Below are positions 45,110-53,730 of a DNA stretch of 64,000 nt, piece by piece. Numbering within the stretch: position 1 is the stretch's first letter; each line of letters opens with the position of its first letter. Position numbers and translations under genes: made by a program. The stretch comes from an uncultured Bacilli bacterium (GTDB lineage: Bacteria; Bacillota_I; Bacilli_A; RF39; UBA660). The notes below the pieces were generated by a model. That model did not search any database, had not been told where the DNA came from, and saw only the letters and a list, made by a program, of their open reading frames with translations. Location: NCBI GenBank assembly GCA_944332705.1, contig CALVKM010000005.1, positions 3,618 to 67,617 of the forward strand, given 5' to 3'.

Positions 45110-45562
45110 ATGGATAGAAGACAAAAAAGTTTTATAATAGTATTAGCTATAATATTAATGATACTAATAATTAGTTTTATTTATGCACTTATCAAACAAA
45201 ATGAAGAAGAACAGGCCGAGATAAATAAATTACACACAGATTTATCACTTACAGAAATTATAAGAGTTGAAAATTATACTGTAGATGAAGAAGACGAAAA
45301 CGAAGCAATCTTATTTATCACTAATCCTGATGCAGTTGCTGATATTGTCGCATTAATAAATGATGCTCCAATTAAATCAATTAGTGCTAGTGATATAACA
45401 ACTCAAAGTGAAACAAGTAGCAATTACAGTTTAGAATTTTTAGATAGCGATAATAACACAATATTATTTCTTGATGGTGATATAATAACCTATAATGATA
45501 ATTTTTATCAGGTTACTTATAATTATGATTATCTATTAGAAATTATAGAAAGTGTAGAATAA
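45110..45562 (+). CDS. N-terminally membrane-anchored protein of unknown function
   Basis: 150 aa with a FIIVLAIILMILIISFIYALI anchor. Its last codons and stop lie inside direct-repeat copy 1. Confidence 0.5.
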   Translation: MDRRQKSFIIVLAIILMILIISFIYALIKQNEEEQAEINKLHTDLSLTEIIRVENYTVDEEDENEAILFITNPDAVADIVALINDAPIKSISASDITTQSETSSNYSLEFLDSDNNTILFLDGDIITYNDNFYQVTYNYDYLLEIIESVE

Positions 45563-45582
45563 AAATCTACATTTTTTTAAAT
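45553..45582 (+). repeat. 30-bp direct repeat copy 1, also a rho-independent terminator
   Basis: TGTAGAATAAAAATCTACATTTTTTTAAAT, with TGTAGA/TCTACA stem, 7-nt loop and T7. Identical to 51107-51136. Confidence 0.95.
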
Positions 45583-45650: not shown

Positions 45651-46241
45651 ATGGGAAAGTTGTCAAATATGATGTATATGATAGATTTATTAAATACAGG
45701 AAATATATATACATTAAAAGAGTTATCTGAAAAAATTGGAGTAACAGAAAGGATGATTCGCTATTATAAAAATGAAATTTGTAATAATGGAATTGTCATT
45801 GAAAGCTTTAAGGGGCCGAATGGTGGATATTTTATGATTGATAAAGTAAAAAATTATATTAATGTTAATAAATATGATATTCAATTATTAGAAAACATAG
45901 CTAATTTTTTATCCGAAAATAATTTTGAATACATGGATAAATTTAGTAAATTTTTAGATAAAGCCAAAAAAATGTATTCAATTTATGATGAGAAAAGTAA
46001 ATATATTTCAAATATAGATATTGATATACCAGGAGAAACAGAAAAAATAATTGAATCTGCAATCAGCAAAAATGAAAAAGTTGAAATTATATATAATGAT
46101 ATTGATGGCGGACAGTCAAAAAGAACAATTCATCCACTCCATTTGTTTAAATATAAAGATGATTTTTATATTACAGCATTTTGTGAGTTGAGAAATGATA
46201 TAAGACATTTTGAATTAAAAAGGATTGTTAATATAAAATAA
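45651..46241 (+). CDS. HTH-WYL domain transcriptional regulator (short YafY-like, no WCX extension)
   Basis: N-terminal wHTH YTLKELSEKIGVTERMIRYYKNEI. C-terminal WYL-like KVEIIYNDIDGGQSKRTIHPLHLFKYKDDFYITAFCELRNDIRHFELKRI. Confidence 0.75.
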   Translation: MGKLSNMMYMIDLLNTGNIYTLKELSEKIGVTERMIRYYKNEICNNGIVIESFKGPNGGYFMIDKVKNYINVNKYDIQLLENIANFLSENNFEYMDKFSKFLDKAKKMYSIYDEKSKYISNIDIDIPGETEKIIESAISKNEKVEIIYNDIDGGQSKRTIHPLHLFKYKDDFYITAFCELRNDIRHFELKRIVNIK

Positions 46242-46292
46242 TTAAGACGAAATATTTCATTTTGTTGTGATATAATATTTTCAAGGAGAAAA

Positions 46293-46814
46293 ATGATTAT
46301 GATGAATGATTATATTTTTATTGATTTTGATGGAGTTATTTTGAATTCGGAAGAGAGAATGTTACAGAGAAAATATGATTTGGGGCTACGAGATCATAAA
46401 AATAAAAATGAGTTTGACAAATATTTTGAATATACAAATTTAAATCCTGAAGAATGGGATTATATTATTAGAGAGGCCAATTCAATTAATGATTCTGTTG
46501 AAATAATAAAAGAACTTGAACAAATGAAAACAAAAATTGCAATTTTAACAAAAATTCACACTCTTTATGAAATGAAAGTGAAAATCGAGGATTTAAGAGA
46601 AAATAGAAACATTATGTGTCCGGTATTCTTTGTTCCGCCTGGAATAAAAAAGTATCAAGTTATTATACCAAATAATCAGTTACTTATTGATGATTCGGAA
46701 AAAAATATTAGAGAATGGATTGAAAATGGTGGTTCCGGTTTAATATTTGATTCTACTATTGATAAAGATACACATGGAAGAGTTAGGAGTTTAGAATTTT
46801 TAACTAAGAGGTAG
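46293..46814 (+). CDS. HAD-superfamily phosphatase, 5'(3')-deoxyribonucleotidase (NT5C)-like
   Basis: Motif I IDFDGVI and motif IV LLIDDSEKNIREW. The size (173 aa) is typical of NT5C-type nucleotidases. Confidence 0.6.
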   Translation: MIMMNDYIFIDFDGVILNSEERMLQRKYDLGLRDHKNKNEFDKYFEYTNLNPEEWDYIIREANSINDSVEIIKELEQMKTKIAILTKIHTLYEMKVKIEDLRENRNIMCPVFFVPPGIKKYQVIIPNNQLLIDDSEKNIREWIENGGSGLIFDSTIDKDTHGRVRSLEFLTKR

Positions 46815-46819
46815 TACAT

Positions 46820-49159
46820 ATGAGAAAAGAAGAATTATTGTTTAGAAATTATCAAAAATCTTTAAAACAAAAATATAATGCTGTTTGTTTTGATATTGAT
46901 GGTACTTTAACTGTTAAAGATTCAAAGTCAATTGATGATAGAGCGATAGAAATGATTATAAATTTATTAAGAAAAAAAATTCCAGTAGTATTTATTACTG
47001 GACGTGGTGAAACCGGACTGAACGATTTGAAAAATGACATATATGAAAGTGTTAAATATGCCAAAAATATAACTGATAATGATATAAAGAGAATATATGT
47101 TTTGACTAATGATGGGGCCAGATTATTTTATAGTAAAAATACATCTAAAGAAAAATTTTTAAATGAAAGTGTTTATATTTCTACAAAAGAAGAATTAAAT
47201 CAATTGTCAAACATAAATAAAATGATTGATAATATAAAAAAGAATTATTTATACGATGATTGTTTTAATGTTACATATTCTAAAGATTTAAAAACTGATG
47301 AAATTATAAATATTAGAATTGTATTTAATACAAATGAAAAAAAAGAGATAGATTTGGTGTTTGATAGTATTGAAACCTTTATACAAGATAATGATTTTCA
47401 TGAAATTCATTTAACTAGAGGTATGTATAAAAATAAAGCAGTTATTCAAATAGGCACCGCTACTAAAGATAAGGCTATTGAAAGAGCAGAAGAAATAATA
47501 GGTGTACCTAAGAATTCGATGATGAGAGTTGGTGATTGTGGTGATTTACGTGGAAATGATTATGCAATGCTTAATTGTAATCAGGGATATAGCGTAGATA
47601 AAACAAATGGTTCTATAAATTCTTGTTTTCCTGTATTTGATGAATATGGTAATATAATAAAAGGAGTAGATGCCACACTTCAGTTGGTAAAAAGTGCTAA
47701 AATTCTGCCTACAGTGTGTTTGGAAAAAGCTGATAAACTTACTTATCAACGACAATTTGCTAATATAGAAAAAAATATTGTTTTAGGCAGAAAGAAATTA
47801 TTAAATAAGTATAATGAAATTATTAATAAAAATTTTAATGAATGCAATGGTATAGATGATTTGTTTGATAAATTCAGTGGGAGTGTTAAAATACCAATGT
47901 ATGAATGGGAACTTTTAGAAAATAATTCCTTAAAAGAATTATGGAAGGCATCAATTAACGGGAATCAAATTTATTCAATTAGAGATGACAATAATTACCT
48001 TTTACGAGGATCTAGTACTTATTATTATTTTATATCAAATCGAATAAGTAATAATGGCGTTGATGTTACATCAAAAAATGATATATTGAATTGGCATCAA
48101 AATTATTTAATTTTTTTAAACAATTCAATACAGGCAGTTTCAATAGCCGATAATTTAAATAATCAAATTAATAAAAAAATGTTACTAGGTATTTTAGATA
48201 ATTGTAGAAATGTCCTACTTGTTTTGTTAAATCATAATTTATTTTCAAATTATTATGATAATAATATTTTGTTAGATATTTCTTCAAGTAATGAAAAACA
48301 AATTTTTAGTATTTATAATTCTTTATTTGAAGTTGATAAAATGATGAGTAAAATATGTTTTCATCCACAATATATTATAAGTAAAGATTGGATTATTGAA
48401 AATATAATTAATACAAAAATTGTTTTGGAAGATAATCTAAAAATTGAGATTAATAATGAAGAGAAAGTGGATTATTCAAAAGATTATAGAGCTTATAGAG
48501 AAATCGATAATTTTGGAGAAAACTATGTAGCGGTGTCTTTATATAAGGAGAAAAGCAACAATAATGAAGTTAGTAGTGCGTGCGGACTAAGTTATGGTGG
48601 CATAGAATTGCCAATATTAACTAAAATAATAAATCAAAACAAGGTCGAAAAATTATTTCTTTTAAAATTTAACAAGAAAGTATCTGGTTATACCAATAAA
48701 CAGCTTATTGATTTGAGGAATTTCAATATAAATGATTTTGGAGGATTAATAAATTCTGAATATTTTAAAGGATTAACTGTTGATTTGTTTGATGATAATG
48801 TTTTAACCGGTAAAACCTTACAATTAGCTATTAACTCTTTGTATGATTGTGATATTCATGTTAAAAATGTTTGTATTGTTAGATATCCTAGCATTAATAG
48901 AATTAATCAGATGTTTTTAGATAATCCAGCAGCCGTTGATTATCATTTGTTTTTTGATTATATATATGGTTTATGCTTTAATAGTCCTTATAGTTGGAAA
49001 GATAATGAATGGAAGTACGAAAATGGTACTATTAATTATACTGATACATTAGGCGTGTTTGATTTAAATAGAAAAAAGATAATAGAGTGTTTAGTAAAAA
49101 ATCATGATTTTAATGAATATAGTGAAGTTGGAGAATATAAAAGGAGATTAGTAAAATGA
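46820..49159 (+). CDS. fusion protein: Cof-type HAD phosphatase, unknown helical middle region, phosphoribosyltransferase
   Basis: HAD motifs FDIDGT (res 24-29), ITGR and GDCGDLRGNDYAM. PRTase PRPP-binding loop VDLFDDNVLTGKTL (res 653-666). Residues about 300-570 are unassignable. Confidence 0.7.
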   Translation: MRKEELLFRNYQKSLKQKYNAVCFDIDGTLTVKDSKSIDDRAIEMIINLLRKKIPVVFITGRGETGLNDLKNDIYESVKYAKNITDNDIKRIYVLTNDGARLFYSKNTSKEKFLNESVYISTKEELNQLSNINKMIDNIKKNYLYDDCFNVTYSKDLKTDEIINIRIVFNTNEKKEIDLVFDSIETFIQDNDFHEIHLTRGMYKNKAVIQIGTATKDKAIERAEEIIGVPKNSMMRVGDCGDLRGNDYAMLNCNQGYSVDKTNGSINSCFPVFDEYGNIIKGVDATLQLVKSAKILPTVCLEKADKLTYQRQFANIEKNIVLGRKKLLNKYNEIINKNFNECNGIDDLFDKFSGSVKIPMYEWELLENNSLKELWKASINGNQIYSIRDDNNYLLRGSSTYYYFISNRISNNGVDVTSKNDILNWHQNYLIFLNNSIQAVSIADNLNNQINKKMLLGILDNCRNVLLVLLNHNLFSNYYDNNILLDISSSNEKQIFSIYNSLFEVDKMMSKICFHPQYIISKDWIIENIINTKIVLEDNLKIEINNEEKVDYSKDYRAYREIDNFGENYVAVSLYKEKSNNNEVSSACGLSYGGIELPILTKIINQNKVEKLFLLKFNKKVSGYTNKQLIDLRNFNINDFGGLINSEYFKGLTVDLFDDNVLTGKTLQLAINSLYDCDIHVKNVCIVRYPSINRINQMFLDNPAAVDYHLFFDYIYGLCFNSPYSWKDNEWKYENGTINYTDTLGVFDLNRKKIIECLVKNHDFNEYSEVGEYKRRLVK

Positions 49160-51111
49160 GAGTAGTAAGTATTGGTGATTTAGTAGTTGATTATTATTAC
49201 AAAGATCAAAAATTATTGGGAATAAACGGAGGTATGACATCTCATAACATTATTGCTAATTTAGCAAAAATGAAAATACCTGTTTCAGTTTTTGGAGTAT
49301 GCGGTAATGATATTCAAGGGCAAATAGCAATTGAAAGTTTAAAAAAACTAGGTGTAGATATAGATAATATAAAAATGTTAGATAATGTTAAAACTCGTAC
49401 TTTTCATGTATCTTATTTTGATAATGATGGTAAGTTAACCTTTGTTTCCAAAAAAAGATGTCCATTTTGTCAAAATAAAAAATGGTATGAAGAAAGTTTA
49501 ATTGATATAAAAAACATTATTGATAATATTAAACATGACGATATTTTAATATTTGATAATTTAAATAATAAAAATCAAACAATTATTGATAAAACTGATA
49601 ATAAAAAAATAATTGATTTAGGACAGTATTTTGAATTTGAAGTCTTGTCTAATCAAGAGATAATTGATAAGTTAGCAAATAAGTTTGAAATAATTAATTT
49701 TAATGAAAGAGTTAGTAAATATTTGTTAAATAGATTAAAATTAAAGGATGATGTAGAGTTATATAATTTACTTAAACCGAGATTTATGAGTATAACTCGA
49801 GGTGAAAATGGTGCTACATTTATAGAAAGTGGTAAAGAGTATAATTTTGATTTGATTTATAAAGGAAAAGTTGTTGATTCTACTGGGGCGGGTGATGCTT
49901 TTATTTCTAGCATAATAAAAGATGCTATTAAAAATAATTTTAAATATGATAGTAATTTATTTAGAAAATGGTATGAAAATTCTAATAAATTAACTTCTAA
50001 AGTAGTATCTGTTATGGGGGCTAGAGGACATATTAATACATTGTTTAAAATTAAAAAAATGGATAATTGTTGTACTTGTGATAATTTAATTTATATAAAA
50101 AGAAAAACTATTAAAAGATGCAATATAAACATTAATAATTTGGAATCTAGGATTATTAATGCTCTTAATTCTTCTGCTAGTAAAATGGTGAATAATATAG
50201 GTTTTAATGAAAATGATAATTGTTTGTTTATTGGAACAGGTGGTTCCTATGCGGGAGCTTATTTTGCATCTAAAATTATTAATTTATTATATGGCTGTAA
50301 CACCTATGCTTTATATCCTAGGGATGTATTATATCGAAATAATCAAAATATAAATAAAGTTATTTTATTTTCTTATTCTGGCACAACTAATGATATTATT
50401 AATAGTGTTAAAGATTTTGATAAGAAAAACATGTATATTATTACTAAAGGAGATATTAAAAATATAGTTTTAAAAACAGGAATAACAAAGAAAAACATTT
50501 TATGTTATAAAACATCAACAAATAAAGGAAAAGAAAGAGGTTTTTTATCATTTGAGGGAGCAGTAGTACCTGCGGCAATATTTTTTAAATATTACTATAA
50601 TATAGTTGATAATACATTTGATATAAATAACTTTGTCAAAGAATCTATAACTTATTGGAAGAATTATTTGAATCAAATTTTGAACAAAGAAATTATAAAT
50701 GAAATAAAAAAACACAATTTAATAAATATTTTCCGAGGAGACTATACTGATAGTGCTTGTTATGATTTAGAGAGTAAAATTATTGAATCTGGTGTATTTA
50801 ATTGTATAATGCATGAAAAAAAGAATTTTTCTCATGGAAGATTCATTAATTATGAAAATTTAAATAATATACATTCCATTTATTTTAAACAAAAATTTAC
50901 TAGTAAATATGAAGTAGAATTAATTAAATATTTGAAAGATAAGAATTTAATTATTGAAAGTAGATATAATGGAATACTTGCGGAATTTGATCTTTTAATT
51001 GCATCACAATTTATCGTTTATTATATTGGTAAAATACTAAACATTGATGTATCAAAACCAAAATATTCTGATGATGCAATGAATATTTATTTTTATAAAG
51101 GGGAAATGTAG
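49156..51111 (+). CDS. fusion protein: PfkB-family sugar kinase plus GlmS-C/AgaS/FrlB-like double SIS domain
   Basis: PfkB motifs GGMTSHNIIANLA and DSTGAGDAF (res 241-249). SIS motifs GTGGSYAGAYFASK and LFSYSGTTND. A second SIS-like segment reads ESKIIESG...HEKKNFSHGRF. Confidence 0.7.
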   Translation: MRVVSIGDLVVDYYYKDQKLLGINGGMTSHNIIANLAKMKIPVSVFGVCGNDIQGQIAIESLKKLGVDIDNIKMLDNVKTRTFHVSYFDNDGKLTFVSKKRCPFCQNKKWYEESLIDIKNIIDNIKHDDILIFDNLNNKNQTIIDKTDNKKIIDLGQYFEFEVLSNQEIIDKLANKFEIINFNERVSKYLLNRLKLKDDVELYNLLKPRFMSITRGENGATFIESGKEYNFDLIYKGKVVDSTGAGDAFISSIIKDAIKNNFKYDSNLFRKWYENSNKLTSKVVSVMGARGHINTLFKIKKMDNCCTCDNLIYIKRKTIKRCNININNLESRIINALNSSASKMVNNIGFNENDNCLFIGTGGSYAGAYFASKIINLLYGCNTYALYPRDVLYRNNQNINKVILFSYSGTTNDIINSVKDFDKKNMYIITKGDIKNIVLKTGITKKNILCYKTSTNKGKERGFLSFEGAVVPAAIFFKYYYNIVDNTFDINNFVKESITYWKNYLNQILNKEIINEIKKHNLINIFRGDYTDSACYDLESKIIESGVFNCIMHEKKNFSHGRFINYENLNNIHSIYFKQKFTSKYEVELIKYLKDKNLIIESRYNGILAEFDLLIASQFIVYYIGKILNIDVSKPKYSDDAMNIYFYKGEM

Positions 51112-51136
51112 AATAAAAATCTACATTTTTTTAAAT
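51107..51136 (+). repeat. 30-bp direct repeat copy 2, also a rho-independent terminator
   Basis: Identical 30-mer to 45553-45582. It supplies the TAG stop of 49156..51111. Confidence 0.95.
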
Positions 51137-51171
51137 TAAGATTCATATACTTGTTTTGGGAGGACAAGCAT

Positions 51172-53728
<2,557 letters not shown>

Positions 53729-53730
<2 letters not shown>

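Follow-up and report, generated by a model that had tools for sequence, protein, structure and literature searches.

Among the genes carried by a 64,000-nucleotide (nt) stretch of DNA from an uncultured Bacilli bacterium (assembly GCA_944332705.1, contig CALVKM010000005.1, positions 3,618 to 67,617 of the forward strand; hereafter the window, with positions counted from its first letter) is an uninterrupted open reading frame (ORF; 46820..49159, + strand) that codes for a protein of 779 amino acids (aa). This protein, referred to below as the fusion, joins in a single chain a phosphatase domain of the HAD superfamily, a mostly helical domain and a domain with the fold of type I phosphoribosyltransferases (PRTs). 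Its gene is the third of four co-directional genes, coding in order for an HTH-WYL transcriptional regulator, a small HAD phosphatase, the fusion, and a PfkB kinase fused to a phosphosugar isomerase-like module with two SIS domains (PfkB-SIS), which together form an accessory cassette bracketed by a perfect direct repeat.

Domain Architecture of the Fusion

By its motifs and profile matches, the N-terminal part of the fusion (residues 1-289, nt 46820..47686, + strand) is a predicted Cof-type HAD-IIB phosphatase domain. HAD motif I reads FDIDGT (residues 24-29, nt 46889-46906), motif II reads ITGR (residues 59-62, nt 46994-47005) and motif IV reads GDCGDLRGNDYAM, with GDCGDLRGND (residues 238-250, nt 47531-47569), all on the + strand; residues D25, D27, T60, D239 and D247 are invariant in a nine-sequence alignment with identities down to 31%. 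In a Pfam scan of the single fusion sequence the N-terminus alone scored, with HAD models at E-values (E) of 0.0025-0.011, and the NCBIfam HAD-IIB model TIGR01484 gave 41.4 bits for a cut-off of 41.8. Searched against the Protein Data Bank (PDB), a 66-sequence family profile found YidA (1rkq), a sugar phosphatase of the Cof type, at E 3.6e-10; further Cof-type HADs and phosphomannomutases of subfamily HAD-IIB came next in the list. The distant homologues P0164, P0179 and P0204 pass the Pfam Hydrolase_3 cut-off.

The middle domain (residues 290-564, nt 47687..48511, + strand) is new and mostly helical. Modelled alone with AlphaFold2 (AF2), residues 290-567 adopt long helices and a small beta element with a predicted local distance difference test score (pLDDT) of 93.6. 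The region has no match in Pfam, NCBIfam, PADLOC or the PDB, and a Foldseek search of the domain against the PDB returned nothing significant, the best hits (E 0.8) being weak similarities to HEPN-like and generic helical bundles. A HEPN identity, with Csm6, Csx1, 2hsb and 7ae8 at E 0.8-3, was rejected because the Rx4-6H motif is missing from the family. Asparagine accounts for 15.5% of the middle region and for 12.1% of the whole protein. This region is neither low-complexity filler nor a linker. In sequences down to about 20% identity, R396, D460, R560 and D563 are invariant and E362, G397, Y401, R463, E561 and N568 are nearly so. The conserved motifs of the domain are RGSxTYYYF, LGxxDNxRN and K..R..REIDNF. 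Since the PRT domain is always accompanied by the helical domain, both are treated here as one module (helical-PRT).

The C-terminal domain (residues 565-779, nt 48512..49159, + strand) has, as modelled, the fold of type I PRTs and an intact loop for phosphoribosyl pyrophosphate (PRPP), yet is atypical. With 66 diverse homologues as input, AF2 modelled residues 290-779 at a mean pLDDT of 94.3 and a predicted TM-score (pTM) of 0.95, and the best 50 of the model's 880 Foldseek matches in the PDB are all type I PRTs or PRT-fold regulators, among them APRT, HGPRT, OPRT, XPRT, PurR and PyrR (E 5e-3 to 2.4e-2, probability about 1, target-normalised TM-score 0.18-0.51). A profile of the C-terminal 229 positions matched PyrR (E 2.6e-4) and HPRT (7e-3) in the PDB, the alignment to PyrR pairing GllYGGiELP with GIktRGiyLA, slYkdk with tLYRDD, and iLlDDNilTGkT with iLVDDVLYTGRT. 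The YGGIELP loop lies at nt 48584-48613 (+ strand), and the PRPP loop VDLFDDNVLTGKTL (residues 654-667, nt 48779-48820, + strand) aligns with VILVDDVLYTGRT of PyrR and shows the expected hydrophobic run, two adjacent acids and T-G-x-T. Within it N660 is invariant, D658 and T666 are nearly so, and the sequences read have either D or E at position 659; Tyr624, conserved in the flexible-loop region, pairs with the tyrosine of the LYRDD loop of PyrR. One distant family member, P0291, has a precomputed match to the Pfam PRT family PF00156.

The preliminary description of this locus, drawn from the bare sequence, had listed the same ORF with FDIDGT, ITGR, GDCGDLRGNDYAM and VDLFDDNVLTGKTL, all of which are found in the 779-aa protein; the PRPP loop is indeed present, although its true position is 3 nt downstream of the one first given. 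That residues ~300-570 resemble nothing recognised agrees with the domain scans and with AF2 and Foldseek, and the type I PRT fold then proposed for the C-terminus is borne out by AF2, Foldseek and the PyrR profile.

Given these relatives, the PRT-fold domain could be non-catalytic like PurR, binding PRPP, (p)ppGpp or a nucleotide and regulating the fused HAD. The closest sequence relatives in the PDB are the PyrR regulators, PurR and ppGpp-bound PRT folds stand among the best 50 Foldseek matches, and the host apparently lacks PRPP (see below). Such a sensor would, however, sit poorly with the many invariant polar residues spread across the helical and PRT domains, and with the occurrence of the module alone or fused to other enzymes, without HAD-IIB. 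Moreover, the ratios of nonsynonymous to synonymous substitution rates (dN/dS), computed against three relatives, reveal purifying selection on all three domains of the fusion that is strongest on the PRT domain (0.06-0.15, compared with 0.13-0.25 for the middle region), making the supposed sensor the most constrained part of the protein. We therefore regard a purely regulatory role as very unlikely.

A Conserved and Mobile Cassette

The first gene of the cassette (45651..46241, + strand) encodes the HTH-WYL regulator, a protein of 196 aa recognised by Pfam WYL (E 1.4e-15), HTH_11 and a PADLOC WYL model (E 3.8e-25). It is followed by the gene of the small HAD phosphatase (46293..46814, + strand; 173 aa), which has IDFDGV as motif I and IDDS as motif IV and is weakly similar to NT5C-type 5'-nucleotidases (Pfam NT5C, E 8e-4, below cut-off); single-sequence searches of the PDB with the small HADs gave no matches. 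The last gene (49156..51111, + strand) encodes the 651-aa PfkB-SIS protein, identified by Pfam PfkB (E 2e-16) and a weak SIS match, whose best NCBIfam matches are weak and comprise ribose-1-phosphate kinase, fructokinase, ribokinase and PGI/PMI; against the ribose-1-phosphate kinase model the PfkB domain scores 50 bits for a cut-off of 330. The genes are tightly packed, with 5 nt between the small HAD gene and that of the fusion, and an ATGA overlap of the fusion stop with the PfkB-SIS start. In the gap between the WYL and small HAD genes (46242-46292), a 10-nt palindrome, GAAATATTTC, reported together with an extended -10 element, may be an operator. A promoter and terminator scan was uninformative in this DNA of 22-26% G+C, yielding 62 promoter-like sites for 57 expected by chance and missing the flanking A/T-rich hairpins.

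The cassette is widely conserved. In a scan of one genome per species, relatives of the fusion were found in at least 124 species, from which 80 loci were fetched, all of them from uncultured gut Bacilli or metagenome-assembled genomes (MAGs) labelled 'Tenericutes', of human, rabbit, chicken and ruminant origin. By tblastn over these loci, the fusion was found in 80/80, PfkB-SIS in 77/80, and the regulator and the small HAD each in 69/80, while the genes that flank the cassette in the window recur in the nearest relatives only. The association with the kinase-isomerase extends to a metagenomic fusion of 27% identity, which is followed by a full-length PfkB-SIS homologue, likewise 27% identical (E 2e-68). 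In 25 loci the fusion and PfkB-SIS are separated by extra genes, and the 19 such gaps that were read contain a CAT-like acetyltransferase with an alpha/beta esterase, a DHH phosphoesterase with an APH-type kinase, or this esterase alone. These optional inserts form modify/unmodify pairs (CAT and esterase, APH kinase and DHH), which fits the tailoring of a small molecule.

The cassette is also accessory and moves between chromosomal sites. In the window, it is bracketed by a perfect 33-nt direct repeat, the left copy of which (45550..45582, + strand) consists of a hairpin and a T-run that form the terminator of the upstream gene (RNA fold -10.1 kcal/mol), and the right copy of which (51104..51136, + strand) is likewise a terminator hairpin. 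When the two flanks are joined in silico, they give one continuous, 80%-identical match in a sister genome (G002), which therefore carries the empty site, and in another genome (G001; L101, C12) the same site holds a different cargo of 8 kb. Relatives of the fusion occur in 4 of the 25 genomes of the genus. The base composition does not clearly mark the cassette.

The variable site corresponds to the junction of a 150-aa gene and a P-type ATPase gene (45110-45582 and 51137-53730 in the window; empty in L102, G002:C8). The alternative cargo in G001 comprises two ABC transporter/FtsX-type fusions, three secreted or membrane-anchored proteins and a transposase fragment.

Family Members in Other Genomic Contexts

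An exhaustive search delimits a family of 376 clusters at 50% identity with E <= 1e-3, of which 230 have E <= 1e-10. Full-length HAD-helical-PRT proteins of ~780-830 aa are seen down to 25% identity. Other architectures include the helical-PRT module alone (~470-580 aa), Metallophos-HAD-helical-PRT proteins (~1200 aa), and helical-PRT proteins with a TrpRS/TyrRS-like domain (~900 aa). No source gives the family a name: members that bear one are called 'hypothetical protein', and querying a word index with the aligned HAD-less relatives returned 11 matches, all unnamed or 'hypothetical protein'. The family is frequent, but it is not the already annotated one that had initially been allowed for, having neither name nor known function. 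Phage collections contain no homologue, and a phage origin is therefore rejected.

A single metagenomic protein of 1417 aa (P0179; L088 1506-5759) adds to HAD-helical-PRT a PRAI-like (TrpF-like) barrel and a second barrel of the ribulose-phosphate-binding type. A place in an alternative tryptophan pathway, prompted by this PRAI-like barrel and by the TrpRS-like partners, was rejected, the other genes of the pathway being absent.

The relatives that lack the HAD-IIB domain have other neighbours. In one genome (G009) and two metagenomic contigs, Rel, an APH-type kinase, helical-PRT, a CAT-like acetyltransferase, a HAD_2/5'-nucleotidase, a YgjV transporter and TyrRS are encoded together, along with a highly divergent TrpRS-like paralogue that is either separate from or fused to helical-PRT. 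This second type of cassette lies between rel and tyrS (L006, G009:C24, 1947-8270; L089, 7027-12489). Other contigs carry a HAD_2 gene, the module and a pyridoxal phosphate (PLP)-dependent decarboxylase near ArgRS; one has the module in a cluster of acyl carrier protein (ACP), AMP-binding, carbamoyltransferase, BtrH_N and PLP-decarboxylase genes; and in another the module overlaps a NADAR gene beside NUDIX and NT5C-like genes.

The Bacillus cereus plasmid pRML02 (NZ_CP011157.1, 99718-115042; L094) bears an unannotated, biosynthetic-looking cluster with a helical-PRT homologue. Beside a divergently oriented metG, its genes are, in order, BtrH_N/DUF6005, an aminotransferase, helical-PRT (annotated as hypothetical), a CatA-like acetyltransferase, an NT5C-type HAD, ACP, a PLP decarboxylase, an adenylate-forming enzyme and an ABC transporter. 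The acetyltransferase and the CAT found as an insert in gut cassettes are clearly homologous (29% identity, E 3e-36), and a similar gene set, without CAT or transporters, was found in a further locus (L105). The extra, plasmid-borne metG could be a self-resistance gene.

A small HAD of the NT5C/HAD_2 type is found near the helical-PRT module in every context read. PfkB-SIS is encoded in none of the six HAD-less contexts read and was seen only beside forms with a fused HAD-IIB, yet a gene other than PfkB-SIS comes after the full-length relative P0129. This distribution suggests two sub-modules, namely the transferase with the small HAD, and the kinase with the isomerase and HAD-IIB. As the PRT domain pairs with a separate small HAD and the fused HAD-IIB travels with PfkB-SIS, the product of the PRT domain may be dephosphorylated by a phosphatase other than the fused one.

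Part of this evidence would also agree with a conflict system, in which a WYL-repressed module directed against phages or competitors would, once induced, produce a toxic nucleoside analogue or drain a nucleotide or PRPP-type pool. In its favour, WYL models from defence contexts recognise the regulator, the cassette is patchy within the genus and its insertion site is variable, the tRNA-synthetase genes near relatives would fit self-resistance, and a distant Metallophos-fused relative is encoded beside dGTPase-like HD, AAA_14 and reverse-transcriptase-domain proteins. Conversely, the regulator is the only cassette protein with a match in PADLOC-DB v2, the fusion, the small HAD and PfkB-SIS finding none at E <= 0.1; phage collections, as stated, hold no homologue; no defence genes flank the cassette within the window; and the cargo found at the same site in G001 consists of ABC transporters and secreted proteins rather than defence genes. 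On balance, a role in conflict appears distinctly improbable.

The distant relative in question (L093 1-11606) is a 1201-aa Metallophos-HAD-helical-PRT protein encoded directly 3' of a dGTPase-like HD/HD_assoc gene; nearby are an AAA_14/DUF4143 gene and a gene of 1044 aa that weakly matches a reverse-transcriptase domain, and the region is possibly a defence island.

Comparison with Known Transferases and Pathways

The preliminary description knew of no characterised enzyme with this architecture; one-chain precedents do exist in the gPRT-PRP enzymes and in CrpP-CriT of Bcs3 (PMC11194591, PMC10299916). The gPRT-PRP ribofuranosyltransferases unite a PRPP-using gPRT and a HAD-family phosphoribose phosphatase (PMC11194591, PMC11127046), and their members, as far as they appear in the work that cites Kelly et al. 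2022, come from Klebsiella O-antigen synthesis and from Thermobacillus composti (PMC11194591, PMC11127046). In Bcs3 of Haemophilus influenzae type b, the HAD phosphatase CrpP precedes CriT, whose helical bundles surround a PRT-like alpha/beta core and which uses two acids on separated loops in place of a DD motif (PMC10299916). These ribofuranosyltransferases act in two steps, the transfer of a phosphoribosyl group and the removal of its 5-phosphate.

The fusion shares with both the presence of a HAD phosphatase and a PRPP-type transferase in a single chain, and its domain order, HAD, helical, PRT-like core, is that of Bcs3. It differs from CriT in that it keeps an adjacent DD motif, and from both in its setting, a regulator-controlled cassette with a kinase-isomerase instead of a glycan-synthesis locus. 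No relation in sequence was detected: neither gPRT nor CriT is named among the PDB profile matches listed (E <= 10, E <= 1), their structures are absent from the best 50 of the 880 Foldseek matches, and none of the 80 cassette loci contains glycan-assembly genes. For these reasons, the fusion is likened in function to the ribofuranosyltransferases and not placed in their families.

The same comparison bears on the idea that the fusion is itself a cell-envelope ribofuranosyltransferase, which like gPRT-PRP or CrpP-CriT would add ribofuranose to teichoic acid or capsule. The module order is the same as in CrpP-CriT (PMC10299916), and ribofuranosyltransferases are also found in Gram-positive bacteria (PMC11194591). 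Besides the missing similarity just described, however, glycosyltransferase, polymerase and export genes are lacking in the 80 loci, and the cassette comes with a transcription regulator of its own and with soluble enzymes for sugar phosphates, so that a glycan acceptor seems highly improbable.

With PyrR, HPRT, APRT, OPRT and PurR the fusion has in common the core fold, the PRPP loop and the flexible-loop tyrosine, which align. It differs from classical type I PRTs in having a helical N-terminal domain of 275 residues in place of the small hood, an invariant Glu in loop 1 (YGGxELP) and an invariant Asn after the acidic pair. BtrL/BtrP of butirosin biosynthesis were set aside as homologues, BtrL being grouped with the UbiA-type polyprenyl-phosphoribose synthases and not with type I PRTs (PMC11194591), and provide a functional analogy only.

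In angustmycin biosynthesis, the type I PRT AgmE and the HAD AgmB act after remodelling of a sugar phosphate, with AgmD as epimerase and AgmC as pyrophosphokinase (PMC8599513). The route that we envisage for the cassette would share this sequence, in which a remodelled sugar phosphate is put on an acceptor by a type I PRT and dephosphorylated by a HAD to give a nucleoside. ToyH and ToyI, the PRT and HAD steps of the toyocamycin pathway, follow the same logic. In both pathways, however, the two enzymes are separate proteins without a PfkB-SIS partner, and both include or rely on a pyrophosphokinase, which the cassette and its host lack. Anantharaman, Iyer and Aravind reportedly predicted in 2012 a Ter-system-linked module of PRT and HAD producing a 'nucleoside-like metabolite'. 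The cassette resembles it as a predicted PRT and HAD route to a nucleoside-like compound in accessory gene clusters, but has no ATP-grasp, TerD or CitE-like genes.

Finally, the haloarchaeal non-carboxylating pentose bisphosphate pathway employs a PfkB-type ribose-1-phosphate kinase, an isomerase and a HAD phosphatase (PMC9700705). The pairing of a PfkB-family kinase with a phosphosugar isomerase-type enzyme is common to the cassette, this pathway and the FrlD/FrlB kinase-deglycase pairs, and the pathway, like the cassette, has a HAD phosphatase, which acts on ribose-derived phosphates; a PRT-fold enzyme is found in neither the FrlD/FrlB pairs nor the archaeal pathway. The isomerase of the archaeal pathway is of the eIF2B-like family and not a SIS protein.

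A Putative Two-Step Transferase and Its PRPP Problem

From the folds, motifs, conservation, operon structure, mobility and genomic contexts observed above, we infer, tentatively and with a probability of about 0.45, that the fusion is a two-step, transfer-then-dephosphorylation enzyme with a small-molecule acceptor, belonging to an accessory, WYL-regulated tailoring cassette. The helical-PRT module would form a glycosidic bond that joins the acceptor to C1 of a donor with a 5-phosphopentosyl group (PRPP or a close analogue), with the helical domain probably serving as the acceptor-binding 'hood' of the transferase. A HAD phosphatase would then take off the remaining sugar phosphate to yield a riboside-type product, the dephosphorylation of the transfer product falling to the small HAD, and the PfkB kinase, the SIS isomerase and the fused HAD-IIB would probably constitute a kinase-isomerase-phosphatase sub-route that prepares the sugar partner. 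By analogy, this logic would be that of the PRPP-dependent ribofuranosyltransferases, ToyH/ToyI and AgmE/AgmB (PMC11194591, PMC10299916, PMC8599513). The fusion would then stand for a third lineage of PRT-type transferases linked to a HAD, one that is distinct in sequence and has a new helical domain and, as its conserved partner, a kinase-isomerase.

Several observations weigh against this proposal. No acceptor can be named. At the sequence level, the fusion has no match to PF00156 at E <= 1 in the Pfam scan, which returned two HAD families only and no PRT family of any kind, nor in a whole-genome PF00156 search; and the loop after the first strand (YGGxELP), with its invariant Glu and no basic residue, would be an odd pyrophosphate loop. 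The most serious difficulty lies in the supply of the donor. Whole-genome searches of the assembly to which the window belongs (G000, a MAG rated 84% complete) revealed no PRPP synthetase (Prs; PF13793, TIGR01251), no Pribosyltran (PF00156) and no UPRTase (PF14681), and the same searches gave matches in 14/14 control genomes. Prs is undetected in 21 of the 25 genomes of the genus, the same 21 having no PF00156 match over the cut-off, and in 25 of the 35 cassette-bearing genomes; UPRTase likewise escapes detection in most of the genus. A canonical PRPP pool in the window's host and in most of the others is therefore doubtful, and with it the donor and the direction of the reaction.

The deficiency extends beyond the genus. 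Canonical Prs was found in none of the 81 genera of the bacterial family, 35 of which have only a divergent Prs-like protein of ~370 aa; the one copy scored, from G014, exceeds the TIGR01251 cut-off. No genome of the genus has both the cassette and the divergent Prs. Judging from these gene inventories, the family appears to have lost canonical PRPP metabolism.

Three ways out may be considered. PRPP may arise transiently through nucleotide pyrophosphorolysis and be drawn forward by the phosphatase; the donor may be another compound, e.g., ribose-1,5-bisphosphate, an option raised because the best, albeit weak, matches of the PfkB domain are ribose-1-phosphate kinases; or the reaction may run in the catabolic direction, by analogy with the archaeal pentose-bisphosphate pathways (PMC9700705). 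The initial proposal of PRPP in and riboside out calls for caution in a host that, like most cassette hosts, has no detectable PRPP synthetase. Of the first interpretation as a whole, the three-part architecture stands, the chemistry is uncertain, and the lack of precedent is not upheld.

Developed further, the third way out becomes a salvage pathway in which the PRT domain would work in reverse, converting a nucleoside monophosphate and pyrophosphate or phosphate to the base and PRPP or ribose-1,5-bisphosphate, and the HAD, SIS and PfkB enzymes would channel the pentose phosphate to central metabolism or onto another base. This bacterial analogue of the archaeal pathways would be useful in a lineage without PRPP synthetase, and the hosts indeed lack Prs and Pfam-recognised type I PRTs. 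The weak ribose-1-phosphate kinase matches of the PfkB domain, the likeness of the enzyme set to that of the haloarchaeal pathway (PMC9700705), and the NADAR, NUDIX and PnuC-like YgjV transporter genes near some relatives point in the same direction. Other relatives, however, belong to clearly biosynthetic clusters with ACP, an adenylating enzyme and exporters, and catabolism does not account for the CAT-like, APH and TrpRS-like partners. In addition, isomerisation of a C1-phosphorylated sugar is not known from any SIS domain, and the cassette is accessory, with relatives in the 4 of 25 genus genomes mentioned above. The equilibria of PRTs favour nucleotide formation, which likewise speaks against salvage. 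Altogether, we consider salvage unlikely, although it is, with the conflict system, one of the two main rivals of the two-step proposal.

A bolder proposal combines the helical-PRT module with PfkB-SIS in a Prs-independent route, in which the PRT domain would use or produce ribose-1,5-bisphosphate or regenerate PRPP by nucleotide pyrophosphorolysis, or makes the same chemistry the core of a new chemical conflict system. We rate its chances as low.

Biological Significance

The family to which the fusion belongs is large, strongly conserved and nameless, and it defines a compact, regulator-controlled mobile cassette of uncultured gut Bacilli, with relatives that, in the Bacillus cereus group, lie in antibiotic-like gene clusters. 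The presence of such an enzyme in genomes without PRPP synthetase poses a concrete biochemical puzzle about the donor, and a Prs-independent route, if true, would make or break glycosidic bonds of the nucleotide type in a manner not known before. Should the fusion prove to be a two-step transferase, it would add a third lineage to the recently discovered enzymes of PRPP-dependent glycosylation, and once its substrate is identified, a new riboside or nucleoside-like gut metabolite could come to light.

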